Shown here piece after piece: positions 14,516 to 28,432 of a stretch of DNA of 64,000 bases. Both the position numbers and the translations under genes were made by a program. Source of the DNA: Mobula hypostoma (lineage: Eukaryota); NCBI RefSeq assembly GCF_963921235.1, contig NC_086097.1, positions 173,912,001-173,976,000 of the forward strand, in the 5' to 3' direction. Numbering within the stretch: position 1 is the first letter of the stretch; the number at the start of each line of letters is the position of its first letter. The notes under the pieces were generated by a model. The model searched no databases and was not told the origin of the DNA. It worked only from the letters and a program-made list of their open reading frames with translations.

Positions 14516-17089
14516 TCAGTCAGCTTTATCAGGAAGTAGACGATTAATATGCTCCTCCTCTATGAAGTCCATGACTTCAGTAGACAGGTGGTAGATCTCC
14601 CTCATCCTGCTTGCACAACCCAGTGATGATGGCTCCATCAGTCTGACCAGAATATCTTCCACTGGTACGAGGCACATATCCTTTCCACCTGGTTTTGGAT
14701 GGAAGCGCATGTTGGACCCATGAGGGTGGAAAAACTCCACTTGAACATCTTGATGATGAGCATGCACAGTGACAGTCTTTGCTAACCACCAATTTTAGTC
14801 ATAAATGAATGCAAGCCCATCTCCGCAATTAATGACACCAGCAAATATATCTGTCCCCTTCCCGTCAGGACCACTCTGGGGTTCCTGCTCCATTTTCTCC
14901 ATCAGCATTGCCAAAGTCACCACCGTCAGATGTAACAGTTCTTTCCCATTCTGGTAGGGCCATCATTCTCCTCAGCCTGTACCCTAGCAAGTGTATTTTC
15001 AGTCAACTGAAATGTTGTTGGGCTGAAACACTGACACATCTGTGGCTCACTGCAGAAACATAACAATGATCTGCAATGGATGCTGTTTCTGTAAGGTATG
15101 ACCTGATGGATTTTCCTCATTGTTGGTACAGGTTTCAGTAGTTGAGAAAGGAGTGCATCATATGGCTCCATGTCACCTTCAGCAATATGATAGAGCTGAG
15201 TACTGCAAAGGCTTCTCCCAATCATCTCATGGAAGATCTTGCCATCCACAATGTCATTCCCCCGTAGTACAAGGCTGTCTGCAGTCCTTTTCACAGTTCC
15301 CCCAATGCCATCTGGAGCTCCCTTCTCATGTGAAGTGGTGAAGAAGTTCCAGGCTGTTCTCTGGAAACCCAGAGTTGGAGGGACATTGCAGAGGAGAGAG
15401 AAGTTCTTCTTGTTTTTGTATTGCTTTCTGGGGCCATCTGACCATAATTGAACGGGATCAACTTTTGAAATTTTTAAACAAATATCTCTGAGGACTGGTT
15501 CCATGCAAGTCCAAATGGCAGAAGCATCCTGTCAATTGGATTCTGATATTGTACAAAATCCTGCTTTCTCTTTGTTTGTGTAGTACATGCCAGTATGCAG
15601 ATTGAGCTTGGGAGGTTCTGCCCAAAATGGCATGCCTGTACCTCAGAACTGTATTTGCATTTCCATGCCTCAGAAAAGTCCACATGCACAATTACAGTGC
15701 TTTCATTGCAGTTCTGTATCATGCTCCTGTATTCCCTGGACTGGTTCTGAACCAAGCACATGTGTTGCTGTTTCACTCTTTAGTTTGTCTTCATACAGTT
15801 TGATGAGCTCTGTCAGTGTACCATTGTGCTTCACAAGTCTTGTATTGTAGTGAATTCCATCTGCTGTTTGGTCCTGAATTCGTTCCCATTGCTGCCACTC
15901 AACATTGGTCAACTCTTACTGTGGGGTGGGAAGTGTGTGCTTGTGGAGACACCAGGTGCAGGAGCGCAAAAGGCATGCCTCGCTTGTCTGAGAACAACAC
16001 ACAAGGTCAAAACTATCCTCCAATTTGCTAGACTTGACAATACCATATGCTCTTAGGACCTCAAACATTTTCATGGTATTGGCATTGGCATGTCTTTCAA
16101 TCTGATAGTTTTGGTGCTGTGACATAGAATGGACGTAAAGCACAGAAGGATGAATAACTGAGTTTTACAGTTGGTTCCTTTTTAATGAACTCCCTGTGGA
16201 GGTTGAATATTGTGTCAGTTAGAATTATTCTCTGATGCTTTACTTTCTTCCCTGTTATCATGTCCTGTTTGTCAGTCGTCATTTGTGCAGCATTATGGTA
16301 GAAATCCTGAACCATCTGGGTTATTGTTTGAATGTAAGTGGGTTTTTTGTCAGTAGTTCTTCTCTTTCGCAGTGTGTTGTATGTCAGCCCGAACTGCTTT
16401 GTCTGTTGTATCAGGCGATATTTCTTTAGAACCCTGCCTGACAGAGTCAAGTTCTTTGATTTTTGAGCAGACTTGCGGGATGACTGTAAATTATTTTTAT
16501 TTTGATTAAATTCTTGAATGAGACAGTTGTGGGAGAGCAGGGTTTTCTTGATGGAGGGGTTTTTGAGTTCGCTTCCTTGTAGAATCTGCTGGTTTTTTTC
16601 TTGGTGATTCTTGTGTTTTTTAATTTCTAGTTTGCTCTCATCGCCAAGGCTTTTTCAGTTTATTCCTATCTTTTACTATCTCTTGAAGTTTATTTTTCAA
16701 AGCTTTCATCTCTCTCAAGTATCTTGATCTTCTTTTCTTTCTTTCTCTTTCCCCTGCTATAGACTGCCTACTGTGATCTGGCTCCTGTATAGCCTGATCC
16801 AATGGACTATCTGGGGGAGTTTCTGGGTGTTCTGGGCCCTTTCTCTTACGCTCTCTTATCTCTTGCTGTCTACGTTTCCACGCCTTCTCTTACTCCTCTT
16901 TTCCCTTTCATTCAAATCACCGATAGTTTTTATCTTCCCATCCTCTACTCTCTTCTTCCATCTTTGCTTTTCCTTGCTCAGGTATTCCTCCTTTAACTCT
17001 GGTTCACTATATATTTTCTCTTTCCGCTTTTTCTGGTATTCCCTGTTTCTTCTCCTTCACTCCTCCACTGATAGCTGTTGCCTAGCCAT
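14516..17089 (-). pseudogene. Disrupted DDE/D-type transposase
   Basis: Joined frames give a basic N-terminus (MARQQLSVEE*RRRNREYQKKRKE...GKIKTIGDLNEREKR), VKLSYSSFCALRPFYV, a C-x-C...H cluster, HVDFSEAWKCKYSSEVQACHFG, WSDGPRKQYKNKKNF, WNFFTTSHEKGAPDGIGGTVKRTAD, and ...LLPDKAD*. Several stops and frameshifts. Confidence 0.85.
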
Positions 17090-17511: not shown

Positions 17512-17690
17512 GTAAACACAAGGAATTCTGCAGATGCTGGAAATTCAAGCAACACACATCACAGTTGCTGGTGAACGCAGCAGGCCAGGCAGCATCTCTA
17601 GGAAGAGGTACAGTCGACGTTTCAGGCCGAGACCCTTCGTCAGAACTAACTGACGAAGGGTCTTGGCCCCAAAACGTCGACTGTACTTTT
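17512..17690 (-). mobile_element. Penelope-derived fold-back element inserted in the DNA transposon
   Basis: Same family as 7420, 28231, 36169 and 39734; back-to-back inverted hammerhead motifs at 17611-17683. Confidence 0.8.
17611..17648 (-). ncRNA. Minimal type I hammerhead ribozyme motif (Penelope type)
   Basis: Minus strand reads tagtt-CTGACGA-a-gggt-ctcg-gcct-GAAAC-GTC-gactg: stem I tagtt/gactg, intact core boxes, stem II, palindromic ACGT in place of stem III, and a GUC cleavage triplet. Confidence 0.7.
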
Positions 17691-18227
17691 TTATATGACA
17701 TGCATGAGCTGTATACAGGAGCCACCCTGTTTTCCTTCTGTTGCTAGCTGCCTCTGGCCGCTACTTAAAATGCATAAATTTATGTCATATTTTTAAAATA
17801 ATTCTTTCCATACAAAAGAGACAGTGTTGACACATCATGGTTGTGACAGTAGCAACATCAATAAATATGTAAAAATTACTGAAAAAATAGCAAACTTACA
17901 AAAACTTGTTTGACCTTGTTGCATTTAGCAGATGTGGAGGGTGGAAAGGGGGTCCTCAGGAATATAGTTGACCATGTGGTTGCCTGATTTTATTGCTTTT
18001 TTTAAAATAAATATCTGACGGTGTTGACAAAAACTTGGGGCACATTTTGAGCAACCGCAAAATAAGACTAAATATTGTTGAAAATTCACTGCTTTTAGTT
18101 TTAAAGAGGTCTTTCATCTGGCAATACATATTATACATTTTAAATGATTTTTTTCACACTTTTTTATCAAATTGAAATGATAATCTCTTGTCTGAGGACA
18201 ACTGATTTTGTGGGTACTGGGCTATCA

Positions 18228-18735: not shown

Positions 18736-20919
18736 ATCATATAATTTATAAAATTAAAAACAAACCTATGTAAAAACATTGCATTTGTGCAAAAGACCCT
18801 CAGGTGACCAACCCCAATTATTTTAAATAAGAAAATGTTACTCATTTTCAACAGAATTAGCACTTTTCTTAGTGGGACGTGTTTTCACCAAAGTCTCAAG
18901 AACCAGTGGCATCAGTCTTTCTTTACAACTAAAGTACAATCTAACCTATTAACTTGATTGACTTTATTTATATTTTACCCAGAGCTAGAACAATTCATTC
19001 AATAGTATATATGATCAATATATTCAAGAATCAAGAAGTTATCAAACTGACTGTTTCTTCTGAGACTTATCATTGATCTCTCAAATTACACAATATACCT
19101 GCTTCACCACAAGTCCAAACTGTGCTGATAATAAAAACTGACTTTTGAAGGGCCACTATGTAATTCTACAATTACCCAACAGCACATCCACCACCATAAC
19201 TACTTCTATTAAATCGCTTTCCTCTTGCCATTTCTTGAAATTAGTTCGCACCTGAGGTCCTCCATTGGTCAGGGCCAACCTCAAATGCTGCGTCCTGGCT
19301 GTCATACGCAAGCCAGAGCAGTATGATATGGAAAGCAAGCTGTTGCCCATGGTAATTTTCTGTTTCTCTCACAGTTTTACTCTTATTCAATTGTATATGT
19401 GTGTGCTGCCCAATAAAGCGCGTGGAGCCTGGAGCAATATCCTCACCCCTGTATTCAATTGCAGCAGGCTCCACCTCTCCATGCAGCAAATGAATCCGAA
19501 GGAACAGCAGAGACTGATATAATTTGACACCAGCGACGTTGCAGGAGTTGCCAGTCAGCGCTGAACTAAATGTAAGGCTGCCTTGGAGACTCCAGCTCTA
19601 GATTTCTCCTCAGGGTTTACTCCTGAAGCTTTCCCCATGATTGGGTATAGCTGTAAGGCAACGGGTACTTATGGTACTTTTCTGTTTCTCATTCAGTTTT
19701 ACTCCTATTCAATTGTATATGTAAGTACTGCCCAATAAAGCACATGGAGCTTGGAGCAATATCCTGACTCCTGTATTCAACTGAGTAGAGTTTGGCTTGC
19801 TGCTGAATTGTGTACTTCCTACTTCACACACAAGGAGAGAATGCAGCTTCAATACTCATTGAGCTATGTCATCTTGCATCAAATGACCAACAATTTCCAA
19901 GGACTGCATTGGGGCAACCCGCAAGTGTCATCACACTTCCAGCACCAACATAGCACGCTCACAATTCACTAAACCTTACCTCTTTGAAAAGTGGAAATAG
20001 CTGGGAGCACCTGGAGGAAACCCACATGGCTACAGGGATAACATACAAACTTCTTACAGTCAGTGGTAGGAATTATTGGTGCTGCAAAGCAATTGCACTA
20101 ACTGCTATGCTACTGTGCCGCCCTAAGAACATGAACACATACACTTAATGATTTAGGGACACTTTCAAACTCTTTACCATCAGGTTTTTGAATAAACTCA
20201 CAAACACTACTTCGTGTTTCTTATTTTTGCACTATTTATTTATCTGGAATTTATCACAATGTTAAACATCTTTGAACTTTACTGCTGCTGCAAAACAAAT
20301 TTCTCCTCACACAAGTCACTGATAAACCTGATTCTGATTAAGGTATAGTCACTGGATTAAAATGTTGAAAATACAACTACTGATTTACACACAGCAAGTT
20401 TCCATAAATATCTATGTGAATGTGACCGGAAACTCTGTTTCAGTAGTGTAGAATCAACACTGGGCCTTATTTTACTAAATATGAAATTCTAATGTCTGAA
20501 TTTAATGCCATGTTTTGAAAGGTGGAATTTCTGAAAGCACAACACTCCCTTAGAGCAGTACTGCAGAGACAGCCTAAATTTCATGCTAATATCCCTCAAT
20601 GTGCTACTCAAGCTGTGGTGATATCACATGTCATGTGTAAGAATGTGACTGGACAGAGTTATGAGCGTGCACAGGAATGTCAGAATGATCAAGAAGCTTG
20701 TATGTTAAGACGTGGTTGCTGTTTGCTGTTAATTAAAAGTTCTAGTTATGTTCTTCCAGAATATATGTCTTTAGGAGTAACCCACGGTACGTATAAAGAA
20801 CACAACATGGTGTCAGAAGTCGGTCTGGAAGAATAATTCGTTTCGCTAACACAGGAGAAGTGAAGATAATTGAAAAAAAAGAGTGCAAACTTTTTTGTTG
20901 TTTGCTAACAGCTTTAAAA

Positions 20920-22083
20920 ATGGGAGCTTTGAAACCCCATCAATGCTTCAGCTGACTGGAAACGTAGCTGACAGCTGGAAAAGACTTAAACAGCATTTTG
21001 AAATTTATTTATCAGCGATCGGAGCAGATAATAAAACAGAGGAAATGAAAGCTGCAATTCTACTCTACGTGATAGAGAATGATGCAGCTGAGGTATATAA
21101 CCATTTCACTTTCGAAAATGGAGATAATTTGAATCTAAAAGCGATAATGGACAAATTTGACGCATTCTGTGTACCGAAGCACAATGTGACATATGAACGA
21201 TACAATTTTTTCAAATGTCGACAAAGATCTGGTCAAATGATTAATCAATTTGTTACGGAGTTGAGAAACCACAGTAAAAGATGCGAGTTTGCAGAGCTTA
21301 CAGACTCTCTCATTAAAGACAGAATCGTTTGCGGCATTCTGGATAATGGTCTACGAGAAAGACTGTTAGAACAAGATTTGAATTTGGAAAAAGCTATGGC
21401 ACTCTGCAAAGCTTCTGAGACTGTGACATCACAGGCTGAAGAGCTTTTTATTGAGAACTGCAACATACATGCTGTGCGCAAACATATTAGAAAAAATAAT
21501 AGAACGGCAATGGAACTGACAGAGGACAAGACGTCATCTGAAAGAAAAAAACTTTGTGATTGCTAAGGGTGGGAGTACCGACCTAAAAAGTGTCCAGCAT
21601 ATGGAAAAATGTGCAATCACTGCCGTAAGAGTAATCATTTTTCATGCTGCTGAAGTAGAAAGGAAATAAAACACGTAAATACAGTGCTTGAAAATAAACG
21701 TGAGGAATTTTATATTGACGTGCTTTGTGAAAACAAACAAAGTAAGAATAACTGGACTATGCCATTGCAAGTGAACCAAAACATTATCCTGTTTAAATTG
21801 GATACTGCAGCACAAGTAAATGTTCTTGCAGAATCTGAGTTTAATGCATTAAAGCCAAGACCAAAGTTACATCAGAGAAATATAAAAGTGACTGGGTATT
21901 CAGGTGCAGACATTCCAGTTAAAGGAATATATGTGGCAAAAGTATCACACAAAAATATTGAACACATACTTTCATGTACAGTCAATATTGGGTTCACCTG
22001 CCTGTGAGAGACTGAATTTGGTAAAAAGAATTTTAGTCCTGGACAGTGACACAGAGTCAGAATACAGAGCCTTGACGAAAGAG
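20920..22083 (+). pseudogene. Gypsy gag and aspartic protease, disrupted
   Basis: MGALKP/SMLQLTGNVADSWKRLKQHFEIYL...YERYNFFKCRQ...IKDRIVCGI, knuckle CPAYGKMCNHCRKSNHF, protease FKLDTAAQVNVL, linker ILGSPACERLNLVKRI. Frameshifts and stops present. Confidence 0.9.
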
Positions 22084-22357
22084 CAAGAGAGAACAGAATT
22101 TGATTCCAACGCAACAAAAGTAAAAGAAGTCATAAAGAAAAGTCCTAGACCCATTCCTTTGTTACCAGCATCCGACAAAGCACTGCCACCAAAACCAAAC
22201 TTGCCAGTACAGTACAATACTAATCTGAAACCAAAGAGTAACAAGAATCAGGATCCAACTGAAGAAGTGAAAGCACAAGTGAAGGAATTGAGAAGTTTTA
22301 TTGAAATGATGAAGTCTCAGCATAAAAAAAGAGATTACACAGTTAATGAATGAATTG
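22084..22357 (+). pseudogene. SH3KBP1: SH3KBP1/CIN85-like C-terminal coding fragment captured inside Gypsy element
   Basis: KKSPRPIPLLPASDKALPPKP...KPK...EEVKAQVKELRSFIEMMKSQHKK(+1 A)EITQLMNEL resembles recalled CIN85 SDNKASLPPKP...KPK...[32 protein letters not shown]. Confidence 0.75.
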
Positions 22358-22743
22358 CGATTTCTTCTCAAAGACCTCAAGAAAGAGCCAACTTCAGAGT
22401 TTCAGTTAACTGAAGCAGACCAGACGAAACAGGAAATAACAACAAAACACAAGAACTGTGTGAACCACTTAGAAGGTCCACTCGTGTTCGTAAACCCCCC
22501 AGAGAGACTGATAGAGACATGTTAAATTATGCATTTGTTTTGATTAATGTTGCCAATTGCTTTTCTTTTTAAGGAAAGGAAGATGTGGTGATATCACGTG
22601 TCACATGTAAGAATGTGATTGGACAGAGTTATGAGCATGCGCGGAAATGACAGAATGATCAAGGAGCTTGTATTTTAAGACGTAATTGCTGTTTGCTGTT
22701 AAATAAAAGTTCTAGCTATGTTCTTCTAGAATATGTGTCTTTA

Positions 22744-23225
22744 CAAGGGGTGATTGATAAGTTTGTGGCCTAAGGTAGAAGGAGTCAATTTTAGAAAACA
22801 TAGCACATTTATTTTTCAACACAGTCCCCTCCTACATTTACACACTTAGTCCAGCGGTCGTGCAACATACGGATCTTGGACCTCCAGAAAGTGTCCACAG
22901 CATGCACGAGGTGATTGATAAGTTCATGACCTAAGGTAGAAGGAGATGAGTTATACAGCTCTCATTACACGCACATGCAGTTCAACTCTTTGAGTGATTA
23001 TGCAGAAAGCTTGAAGTTAATAACTCGTCTCCTTCTACCTTAGGCCACGACCCTATCAATCACCCCTGCTGCGGACACTTTCTGGAGGTCCAAGATCCAT
23101 ATGCTCCACAACCACTGGACTAAGTGTGTAAATGTTGGAGTGGACTATGCTGAAAAATAAATGTGCTAGGTTTTCTAAAATTGACCCCCTCTACCTTAGG
23201 CCACGAACTTATCAATCATCCCTCG
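22744..23225. mobile_element. Tc1/mariner-type MITE, near-complete palindrome, inserted in the 3' LTR
   Basis: TIRs caaggggtgattgataagtt / aacttatcaatcatccctcg. TA at left (22742-22743), AA at right. ~160-bp arms plus an internal second TIR pair. Confidence 0.88.
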
Positions 23226-23789
23226 AATGAGTAACCCACAGTACGTATAAAGAACACAACACAAGCCATCAGCAATCTGACTCAGAAATGAGACTGCTAC
23301 TGAGCATCCACTGACATACACCATGAGACATTAATAGTTTACAAACCTTAATAAAAAGCACCTGCAACTCTAGTTGGTAACCTTTCAGGGAGCTTCTCGC
23401 TCTATTCATATAGCTTATTTCCTTTAAACTATACTCTTGGGATCGGAAATCTTGTTTATTCAGGAACAGAAAGGTTGAGGGGTTCAATCAACCAAATCCT
23501 GCCTAAGGATCAACACAATAAAAAACTTGGAATGCAGCTAAACAGTTGCTAGAAAGAGATTAAAGTACTATAGCACGAGTGTTATAACCAACATTTGAAC
23601 ATTGATTATAAAGATAGATTAGCTTTATTTGTCACATGTACATCAAATATCAAAACATACAGTGAGATGCGTCATTTATGTCAATGATCAGCACAGACCG
23701 AGGAATTGGAAGAGGCAGTCTGCAAGCGTCACCATGCTTTGGGCACTGACATTACATGCCATCAATTTATTAATCCTAACCCAGATGAC

Positions 23790-24938: not shown

Positions 24939-26144
24939 TATTAAACAAGAGCATTTTTACTGAAATCTTTCAATTTCTCTTAAATTAATTTTCATGTTTA
25001 TAAACAGGTAAGCAGTTAGTATCTTCGTCACCTCTGACAATTTTCAAGGATACAAAGGGAAAATTGATAATTAGGGGAAAGAGTATCAACAGGTATGACA
25101 TATAGGCTGATTGTGAGCTCTTGGGGGAAGAAAATATAAATACTTTAGTAAAAATAAGACTGACTTGATATTTTTATTGGTCCTCTACTAGGCTCAGGAA
25201 CAAGAACTTGAGGACACATGACCAAACCCTTCACCATTTTATCACTAATTCTGTCCACTTCACTGACCCCATAACTCCCAAACCTTCATCTTTGTGCTTG
25301 TCATTTTGTTACTTCATCCTTCCACATCTTTGTAATCTCGTCCTACACTGTAATATATCATTTTTCAGTCTATTGTTCTAATTCTAGCTTTTTGTGCATT
25401 CTGCCCTGTTCTTTACTTGATCATTCATGAGAGTGCTGCTGTTGCTAAAGTTTCATCACCAGATTCCTCTCAAATTTCCTCCTTTTTCTACTTCCCTATC
25501 GTCCTTCAAGACACTTCATAAAACCCACCTTTTGACTAAGTTTGGAGTCACCTGTTCTTATTTGGTAATACTAACTTGATTTCTACACATCTTTCAGAAA
25601 TACTTTGAGGAATTTCTCCGTGATAAAGCTGCTACATAAATTAAGTATTGTTGAAAGAACATGCAACATAAAAGAGTTCAAAAATGCCTTAAAAAATAGG
25701 ATCAATGTCACAGTCAGTTATATCCAATTCTGGTCACATGTACAGTTAAGAAATAAATTCCAAAGATAATTTAAAGCACAAATCAGAACAAAGCTAATCT
25801 TGTTCAAATCCCTCTGCAGTTTATTTTCCATCTATTACTCTAATTTCCCCTAGCTTGACACCTTCTCCAATCTCTGTATTAAACCAAAACTCCTAGCCTT
25901 TCTACTCCATTGCTTTGTTAACAGCAAGTGTTCAACTGCGCAGCCAAAAAAGTTTTGAAAATCCTTTCTTAAGTTTCTCTGCCTCTTCACATTCTTTTAG
26001 TAGTTGTTTAAAGTTTTTTATCTTTGACAAAACCTTTAGGTGCCTATTGTAATATCTGTACACAACCTGGCATGAAATTTTGTACAATACCGCTCCTCTG
26101 CATCTTTTTGGAACTTCTAATTACTTCAAAAGAATTGCAGTTAC

Positions 26145-26680
26145 CCTCCATCCCCCAACCCCCACTTTTTATTCTGGTACCATCCCCCTTCCTTCTATGT
26201 CCTGAAGAAAGGTCTCAGCCAAAACATCAACTATCTATTCATTTCCATAGATGCTGCCTGGCCTGTTGAGTTCCTCCAGTATTTTGTGTGTGTTGCTTTG
26301 TACTTCCAGTATCTACAGATTTTCACGCGTTTATGACTTCCTACTCCACTGTGAAGTTACTTCGAGGAATGCCTACACTGAAGAAATTAAAATTTTCTCT
26401 TTGACAGGGGTTCAGTGAAACCCTCTCTCACTGCTTCCCCTCTATGACCTCTACTGTCCTCTGTCTCTTCCACCACATACACACACAGCTAGCCTCCTTC
26501 TTCTCCTCCAACCTTTTTATTCTGGCACCGTCCCCCTTCTTTCTCAGTTCTGAAGAACAGCCCAGCCAGAAACATCAACGATCTATTCATTTCCATAGAT
26601 GCTGCCTGACCTGCTGAGTTCTTAGAGCATTTTGTGTGTGTTGCTTTGGATTTTCAGCATCTGCAGACTTTCTCATGTAT
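26145..26680 (+). mobile_element. Two tandem Penelope-derived terminal repeats (degenerate hammerhead cores)
   Basis: Two copies (~26150-26335 and ~26500-26680) of ctgaagaa...aaacatcaac...catagatgctgcctg...ttttgtgtgtgttgctttg. Confidence 0.7.
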
Positions 26681-28230
26681 CAATAATGATACTATCCTTG
26701 TCATAAATCGAGATAATAAAACTCATTCCCATTCATATGTATGAAAATCAAAAAGGAATATTAAATCAGTATGGATTGCTTCAAGTTTAACATAGCTAGA
26801 TACAAATTCAACATGGACTTCCAACAACTAAATCAAAACATGTTAAGAGAGCACATTTGTTTCACTCAGGATTTCTGCTAAAATTGGAGTTTCTTTCATA
26901 ATCTGACACCACTTGAGTTCTGCCATCCTTTCCAGGAAATTTGTTTAATTAAGTTTTACAACTAGAATATGAGAGTTTTTCTGTTATAAAAATAGAACAA
27001 AAATCAAATGAGGGAACATATAAAAGAGTGTACAAAGTTCAGTATATTGGAAGGACAGGAAGGTACTCAAAGTTTAGTATTTTCAGTCAACAATCAAAGA
27101 CTTGAGGTCATGTGCCTAAATGAAAATATATCTTTATTTTTTAAATAGTTCAAAATTTTCTACCCTTTTTTCTAGAAATGCCACTAATTTTGAATGACTC
27201 AATCTGGCAATATTTGGTATATCAAAAAAACTATAAACTAAAGTTAGAACTTGATTACATTTTTACATATCAATTTAATTATCAATTAACTAAAACAAAA
27301 GAACTGAAAAAACACAATCCAAAGAAATTATGTACACTTCCCTGTTGCATTGCAGAATAAATAATTTTCTTTATTCTTCAAGTGAGAGATTTATTAATTA
27401 TATAAGTACTTAAAAAAATAAATCACTCAAGTAATACCACTTGGATCACATCAAACACCAACTGAAAAATCATTCTATATTAAAGAAAGTTATACTAATT
27501 TGTACAAGCCATGAATTAGACCAACATTTCCTCAGAGTTATTATCTCATAGGGAATATCCAATTTCCAGCCTTTGGTTATGCATTAACATTTAAAATTAA
27601 AATTGAATCCTGGCTTCTTCTAAAGCCAGTCATGCAATAAGATCTTCTCAATGGCATGAAAGATGAGAGCTATTATAATAACCTAAACCAAAATTCTTAA
27701 AATCCCTGAAGACACTGTAGGAAATGCCCACCCTCCCTGTGATCTCACTTCTACCCCCAACCTAACACAGCTCTTCAGCACGACTATCAAAGATTCACGA
27801 TGGAAAATTCAAATCTAATTAGTTGCCATTGGGTAATTTGGTTTAGACTTAAATATATACTGTACTTCCAAAATCTATATGTGCTCTAAAACCAATGGAG
27901 ATAGGCATGCAGATAAACATTCATGCAAAAAAAGTCCAATTACCTTGACCAAATAAATAGACTGTCCCAACCTTTTTTTCCACAACTCTCTTGCCCCATT
28001 TATCTTTCAAACACTCCCACTTAAGAGCATTTTTTTGACAAAAAGGAAGAAAAGAACACATGCATTTGACAGTACATGCTAGAAACCACTTTGTTTTCAA
28101 AATAATCTCAGAGTAGTTTTATTCCACACAATTAGAACTTTTTTGTAAAGCCTCGAAGTCAATTGTAAAGGTACCCGGTTCAGAAAAATGTTTCAAATTC
28201 AAACCAAACATAGAAGAATAAATTAGGTAA

Positions 28231-28432
28231 CACATACAAAATGCTGGAGGAACTCAGCAGGTCAGGCAGCATCTATTGAAAAAAGTACAGTCAAGGTTTC
28301 GGGCCAAGACCCTTCGGCAGGAAACATTGACCGTACTTTTTCTCCATAGATGCTGCCTGGCCTGCTGAGTTCCTCCAGCATTTTGTGTGTGCCACTCGTC
28401 TTTCCAGCATCTGCAGATTCTATCTTTTTTTT
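28231..28432. mobile_element. Penelope-derived fold-back element with 16-bp TSD
   Basis: Inverted arms; direct repeat AGAATAAATTAGGTAA at 28215-28230 and 28433-28448. Confidence 0.85.

Follow-up and report, generated by a model that had tools for sequence, protein, structure and literature searches.

It is confirmed that the window, that is the whole 64,000-nucleotide stretch of Mobula hypostoma DNA that was analysed, holds a decayed non-autonomous Gypsy LTR element (20614-23261) whose core has been swapped for spliced SH3KBP1 (CIN85) mRNA. It is one member of a multi-subfamily group of a few hundred copies, in which selection kept the reading frame. The reading judged best, at a probability of roughly one half, is that the family spread because the encoded Gag(-protease)-coiled-coil fusion gave an advantage. 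From the window alone a reader could not have seen a family of many subfamilies, its hundreds of copies or the two further host genes that it captured.

The window element and its SH3KBP1 insert

TG...CA LTRs, a primer-binding site (presumably of tRNA-Leu type), a polypurine tract and a short target-site duplication are all present, as expected of a Ty3/Gypsy LTR retrotransposon (Table 1); the assignment is based on these hallmarks and on the domain order of full-length partners. In a full-length relative, the Gag-Pol protein P0018 (1285 aa), Pfam domains for protease, RT, RNase H and integrase stand in Gypsy order, the order being read from the sequence. Relative to P0018 the window form lacks aa about 398-1229, that is RT, RNase H and the integrase core. 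Gag and the coiled coil were not recognised at the cut-off of the Pfam search. Both LTRs are present, and a poly(A) tail and L1 hallmarks are absent at the insert, as in LTR-mediated retrocopies. The copy is dead, as the initial annotation had recognised: its zinc-knuckle region is interrupted by stops, the frame breaks near 21975 and the A-run is frameshifted. At the 21975 site, contigs of other sequencing runs have extra bases.

Table 1. Features of the element, in window positions
Feature	Position	Strand	Remarks
Target-site duplication, 5 bp	20609-20613, second copy 23262-23266	.	
5' LTR, 194 bp, TG...CA	20614-20807	+	19/194 positions differ from the 3' LTR (9.8%)
Primer-binding site	20808-20821	+	
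gag, including zinc-knuckle region	20874-21653	+	Stops from 21564 on; homologous to the N-terminal part of full-length Gag-Pol P0018
Aspartic protease and protease-RT linker	21654-22078	+	Frame break near 21975; weak Pfam PF13975 match, E 0.004, below cut-off
Captured SH3KBP1 mRNA, aa 524-563, ends in LPPKP	22079-22197	+	Exon A/B junction at 22167/22168
Captured SH3KBP1 mRNA, aa 594-647 (linker and N-terminal part of coiled coil)	22195-22356	+	Exon B/C junction in A-run 22325-22331, where the window copy is frameshifted
Inverted 14-nt piece of integrase tail at 3' junction, encodes RFLL	22355-22368	-	Junction common to 49 copies
Integrase C-terminal tail, P0018 aa about 1230-1285	22369-22525	+	Natural stop kept
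Polypurine tract	22571-22583	+	
3' LTR	22584-23261 (parts 22584-22743, 23228-23261)	+	Split by later insertion
Miniature inverted-repeat element inside 3' LTR	22744-23227	.	157-nt arms, 90% complementary

The starting point was an ORF (given as 21904-22353) said to run without a stop out of the protease-RT linker, through LPPKP and on into a heptad segment. Such a frame is present, from 21892 to 22353 (153 aa); its start does lie in the linker, but its first part is not in the protease frame, which is broken near 21975 in this copy. RFLL had been taken for the resumed integrase and has to be reassigned to the inverted piece of integrase tail, the true tail restarting at KDLKKEPTSEF.

The top 10 of the 17 protein matches to the insert frame are SH3KBP1, with E values down to 7e-33 (9 are so named, and 1 that has no name shares their SH3 domains), and no match named CD2AP occurs among the 17, so that the preference for SH3KBP1/CIN85 over CD2AP as the donor was well placed. 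The two best PDB matches are the CIN85 coiled coil. When the insert (22079-22356) was compared with host DNA it aligned in four pieces to three exons on G000:C18 at 90-100% identity, skipping two introns; the longer form in copy L031 skips three. It is nearly certain that the insert is a capture of spliced, intronless, sense-strand SH3KBP1 mRNA, standing in place of RT, RNase H and integrase, and the initial annotation, which had supposed an intronless mRNA piece with an exon junction at HKK/EI, was right on the latter to within a codon, the junction lying inside the A-run of HKK. The best protein match, P0001 (Mobula hypostoma SH3KBP1), translates exactly from the G000:C18 exons over aa 505-671; therefore the donor gene is present in the same genome. 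The similarity goes beyond generic coiled-coil composition, an explanation that is rejected on the DNA identity to host exons. CD2AP was also rejected as donor, a likely paralog exon on C2 having only 58% identity to the upstream region. A match to the capping-protein-interaction motif (PDB 3lk2_T, E 0.64) is taken as chance, because the known motif of SH3KBP1 precedes the captured segment.

A 93-nt part of host exon B (about aa 564-594) is missing from the insert. The gap is an internal deletion shared among copies and not the product of alternative splicing, since both of its ends fall inside one exon. The A-run frameshift was seen in 15 of 180 copies from several subfamilies, and because it recurs in this way it looks like slippage rather than a family trait. 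Window-type copies (window 22085-22125; L120, L129, L139, L140 and L142) have, at the 5' end of the insert, 46 nt of SH3KBP1 beyond what is found in the form whose junction is at RT aa 449, a difference which means that a second switch, to host or partner RNA, is needed in one of the two forms. Residue 540 is E in 36 of 38 window-type copies, as in sawfish and stingray SH3KBP1, and D in the present host; judged from these sequences, the capture likely predates the host E/D change.

Elsewhere in the window, broken ORFs at 14926-17056 (- strand) presumably derive from a decayed DNA transposase. There are also 113-nt direct repeats (19349-19461 and 19671-19783, 88% alike, with AATAAA), possibly the remnants of another LTR, and a common short interspersed repeat that is present several times, in either orientation (26138-26672, 28229-28391 and 17516-17692).

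A family with three host cargoes

The first look at the genome returned 434 candidates for the insert, 260 for the RABEP1 piece and 589-656 for backbone queries, figures which are not copy numbers. A set of 180 copies was mapped: 30 via DNA search, 20 chosen for their long frames, 15 chosen in part on that ground, and 115 picked by working down the hit lists. Most were found via cargo peptides, and L031-L050 and part of L055-L070 were the ones selected for long frames. L020, L024 and L026 are DNA-level duplicates of L015; they were left out of the N:S counts and the gag tree and are still in the junction and frame counts.

The second cargo is RABEP1 aa 60-173 and the third SLU7 aa 430-491; host exon junctions are crossed three times in SH3KBP1, once in RABEP1 and twice in SLU7. 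Five forms can be distinguished: A (RT449>CIN85 540-667), B (the window type), C (CIN85 from 591), D (RABEP1-CIN85-RABEP1) and E (Gag-RABEP1-CIN85-SLU7, protease lost). The original form lacks P0018 aa about 450-1208, an internal part of the ORF having been replaced, not interrupted, as in retrocopies. Cargo copies keep Gag and protease and have lost RT and integrase, subfamily E being without protease as well. In natural sister copies an open frame runs through Gag, protease, CIN85 and the integrase tail (for example 563 aa in L031, a copy chosen for its long frame), which bears out the supposition that a Gag-PR-coiled-coil fusion was originally made.

Subfamily E (L064-L070, L181, L184 and others) reads Gag-RABEP1-CIN85 followed by the SLU7 lysine run, and in the three copies printed (L065, L066 and L068) the ORF stop precedes a duplicated integrase tail and the first polypurine-tract-like stretch. 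In around 40 copies (L055, L056, L058 and others) a double crossover at the alike EAVE/EEVK/MEVE codons has placed CIN85 aa 616-662, its coiled coil, within that of RABEP1 to give a chimeric coil. The parent form with RABEP1 only was found at just 3 places (L059, L159 and L221). One single-copy locus, L021/L087 (G000:C12:196.28 Mb), has window-type cargo in frame after RT at about aa 630 on a full-length backbone, and is a late recombinant of a partner and a cargo-bearing RNA.

Of 20 loci fetched by RT search, 19 are RT-bearing partners, collinear with P0018 over the RT region, and the twentieth is this recombinant (L087). The partners match the cargo copies in LTR, gag and tail and fall into about three backbone groups; where both LTRs were seen, the integrase tail lies directly before the 3' LTR, with no env. 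Median LTR divergence is 7.5-8.9% for the cargo forms and 9.0% for the partners, and from this similarity it follows that helpers and passengers were active over the same period: the family rose to a few hundred copies alongside full-length partners of the same age. The gag tree (149 copies) resolves few backbone groups only, and the subfamilies are star-like with little linked variation. Cargo is present on several backbone lineages, and the same backbone family received host sequence by primary capture at least twice independently. At the original junctions of SH3KBP1 and RABEP1, 5-8 nt are common to both parents (a plain count), as in capture by template switching, and some derived junctions share little. 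Capture of mRNA with short shared sequence at the original switch points is thus shown, as are the further captures of RABEP1 and SLU7 and the exchange of cargo between backbones. The same fusions are found as stingray proteins P0011, P0016 and P0017; family junctions occur in contigs of coded organisms A, B and E, and the window junction region is covered by contigs of coded organisms C, D, E and F.

In an unrelated Gypsy lineage (L301-L324, e.g. L302, L311 and L319), with 24-36% protein identity to P0018, SUDS3 lies behind the protease. It is fused in frame to Gag-PR in three of the four loci read, and of 331 candidates 150 were scored, which gave 119 matches.

Selection on the reading frame and on gag

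All 21 junction or deletion types between coding parts that are common to at least 2 copies are modally in frame (180 mapped copies). These comprise 18 junction types, two backbone deletions (150 and 27 nt) and POL386>SH325; 14 of the 21 are located before the CIN85 coiled coil or where it begins, and 7 downstream of it. On inspection the POL399>SH105 junction was present in 4 copies, others of that class carrying the 150-nt deletion. By comparison, only 23 of 83 single-copy backbone events of at least 10 nt are in frame (Fisher p 4e-10). Chance microhomologies are in frame in 38-45% of cases and so the mechanism alone leaves the frame pattern unexplained; 0.45^14 is about 1e-5 and 0.45^21 about 5e-8 on the assumption of independent junctions, although the junctions are not fully independent. 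The fact that the shared junctions are in frame shows that translation was under selection, and that selection kept the reading frame.

Two shared changes downstream depart from this. A one-base frameshift after aa 661 is present in 17 of 121 copies; a linkage test found no linked variant among 57 copies, which is compatible with either a shared or a recurrent origin. Subfamily D has lost the natural ORF end and uses a new stop, and many copies have a coiled-coil frame that ends 29-47 nt short of the polypurine tract.

Gag is constrained in the cargo-bearing copies, with N:S of 37:43 for shared changes against 1064:361 for rare ones. When variants absent from 46 RT-bearing copies were taken, N:S was 11:11 after hand-merging of repeats (p 0.011), although unsampled partners may be their source. 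The protease has the same trend (10:14 shared, 611:185 rare) and the zinc-knuckle stretch is without it (9:2 and 269:29). No shared stop was found in gag across the cargo copies examined. Shared inactivation of gag or protease was considered and rejected, since RT-bearing copies show the five frameshift hot spots at similar frequency. Of the rare mutations in the copies, around 75% are non-synonymous, as expected of neutral decay after insertion. In the cargo, shared point changes stand at 16:10 and rare ones at 1373:465 (p about 0.10), with few sites and without polarisation by other species. Constraint across sister copies, the signature that the initial annotation had in mind, is thus found in gag but is not significant for the cargo amino acids.

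What the cargo may do

In a sample picked by backbone only, 40 of 72 places hold cargo, 27 keep RT and 5, cut by insertions, are unclassifiable; cargo-free deletion derivatives number 0 of the 67 classifiable places. A coiled-coil piece is held by 38 of the 40 cargo-bearing places in this sample. Shared deletions into the SH3KBP1 cargo remove aa 540-612 or 648-667 and never 616-647, and POL386>SH325 retains little beyond CIN85 616-647. The SLU7 piece is a linker and lysine run with no evident coiled coil, and L300, a single copy, is also without one. The CIN85 coiled coil trimerises, according to the available part of one report (PMC10786037), and in human CIN85 residues K645, K646 and R648 are described, again in the part available, as required for binding of phosphatidic acid and c-Cbl (PMC4096430). 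The matching basic residues, mapped by C-terminal counting, are deleted in 49 copies including the window copy, and so it is not for membrane binding that the piece is retained; on the same deletion, subfamilies B and C were judged not to have been selected for phosphatidic-acid binding.

We infer an oligomerisation role for the CIN85 piece in the element. In outline, the host mRNA would have been captured by template switching of reverse transcriptase inside the particle, and full-length partners may supply RT and integrase in trans. The coiled coil could help the fusion Gag to oligomerise, or to co-assemble with partner Gag-Pol, and through such co-assembly the element's own RNA might be packaged more often. 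In favour of an advantage of the fusion are the backbone-picked sample, the shared deletions that spare CIN85 616-647 and the SUDS3 fusion of the unrelated lineage. Several things weigh against it: an active protease might cut the cargo off Gag, the 7 in-frame junctions downstream of the coiled coil fit generic read-through equally, and to these must be added the SLU7 cargo, L300, the cargo point changes, the aa 661 shift, the lost ORF end of D and the way in which the mapped copies were sampled.

Much of this would also suit selection on translation as such, a possible if somewhat doubtful account in which Gag made in cis and a frame open to near the 3' LTR are favoured, through RNA stability or translation-coupled packaging, and lysine/glutamate-rich host pieces are simply the easiest stop-free filler. 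The 7 downstream junctions, the frames that end shortly before the polypurine tract or, in D, at a new stop, the cargo's want of significant amino-acid constraint, the SLU7 piece and the microhomology that A-rich coding sequences share with pol are all in keeping with it. However, a cargo-free in-frame deletion would suffice for such a purpose and should arise more easily than a capture, yet none was found among the 67 places. Moreover, a cargo of only around 165 nt is kept in some cases, which makes length an unlikely reason, and the aa 661 frameshift (17 copies) and the tail arrangement of subfamily E place the stop well upstream of the LTR.

That the cargo is a neutral passenger, kept by the descendants of a few founders that by chance were highly expressed in the germ line, is improbable and is largely refuted by the frame test (21/21 against 23/83). 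The star-like subfamilies with little linked variation and the lack of significant constraint on the cargo would suit it, and captured elements have been retroposed again as non-autonomous ones in the cases described in the available text of Tan et al. (PMC5131818); but gag is constrained, cargo occurs on several backbone lineages and primary capture into the same backbone family happened at least twice independently. Host domestication of the fusion, for example as a dominant-negative CIN85 fragment with the window or a sister locus as a host gene, is very improbable. Stingray annotations do list the fusions as proteins (P0011, P0016 and P0017), and element junctions occur at low depth in the contigs of four runs labelled, by guess, as RNA; against this, the RNA label of those runs is a guess and contigs alone cannot show transcription, the window copy has several stops and frame breaks, its LTRs differ by 9.8%, and the rare mutations have the non-synonymous share of neutral decay. 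Returning to the advantage of the fusion, a broader version of it can be put forward tentatively, at less than even odds: ray Gypsy elements may repeatedly have taken host coiled coils (CIN85, Rabaptin-5 and, in the unrelated lineage, SUDS3) as Gag oligomerisation modules, letting enzyme-less elements out-compete their helpers for particle assembly, and may later have tuned them by recombining coils into chimeras.

The layout recalls that of the acutely transforming retroviruses, in which a defective genome has a spliced host coding piece in place of pol, in frame with gag (gag-onc), and a helper supplies the enzymes. The ray family shares this layout but is Gypsy, has partners without env and spread in the germ line; an env-bearing helper and infectious spread were not found, and there is no sign of transformation or infection in the ray family. 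In the LTR-mediated retrocopies of animals, a stretch of the internal ORF between the LTRs has given way to an incomplete, intronless mRNA in sense orientation (Tan et al. 2016, Genome Res 26:1663, PMC5131818); as far as the available text goes, short sequence is shared at the switch points, several parent genes can be combined and the products are re-retroposed as non-autonomous elements. The ray family agrees with such retrocopies in the features compared: intronless sense mRNA, a replaced ORF part, microsimilarity at the switch points and both LTRs. However, the cases described there are young, single or few-copy loci (PMC5131818), whereas the ray family numbers a few hundred copies, has cargo on several backbones, shows 21 or more shared rearrangements and bears measurable signs of selection on Gag and on the reading frame. 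Maize Bs1 is an LTR retrotransposon whose chimeric ORF contains pieces of three unlinked host genes (PMC5131818, PMC13317346). In the parts of these sources available it is present in 1-5 copies with identical switch points, and of its three pieces one is out of frame, in contrast to the three in-frame cargoes, high copy number and many junction variants of the vertebrate family; with hundreds of candidates and neutral decay after insertion, the latter is not a low-copy, intact chimeric gene kept by the host. Plant TR-GAG elements (PMC13570524) likewise keep Gag (and protease) without RT and integrase, but host cargo is unmentioned in the part of that report available, whereas in the ray family a cargo-free form was not found (0/67), and each of the 40 non-autonomous places sampled by backbone contains host cargo rather than a plain Gag-only interior. 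The capture mechanism is thus already known, from LTR-mediated retroposition and from maize Bs1; it is the scale, the serial captures and the selection on frame that are unusual. No publication on SH3KBP1- or RABEP1-carrying LTR retrotransposons, or on this ray family, was found in a literature search that was thin on subscription journals and did not extend to supplements.

One practical consequence is that copies of the family give rise to spurious gene models, named 'RABEP1-like' or 'uncharacterized', in the annotation of rays (P0011, P0016 and P0017). Further, the capture of host genes by LTR elements is usually viewed as a series of single accidents, and here a captured piece reached hundreds of vertebrate germ-line copies. 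The dead copies record both the selection on frame and the absence of cargo-free derivatives, and an old question, whether captured host coding sequence can benefit the retroelement itself, is thereby made testable from sequence.
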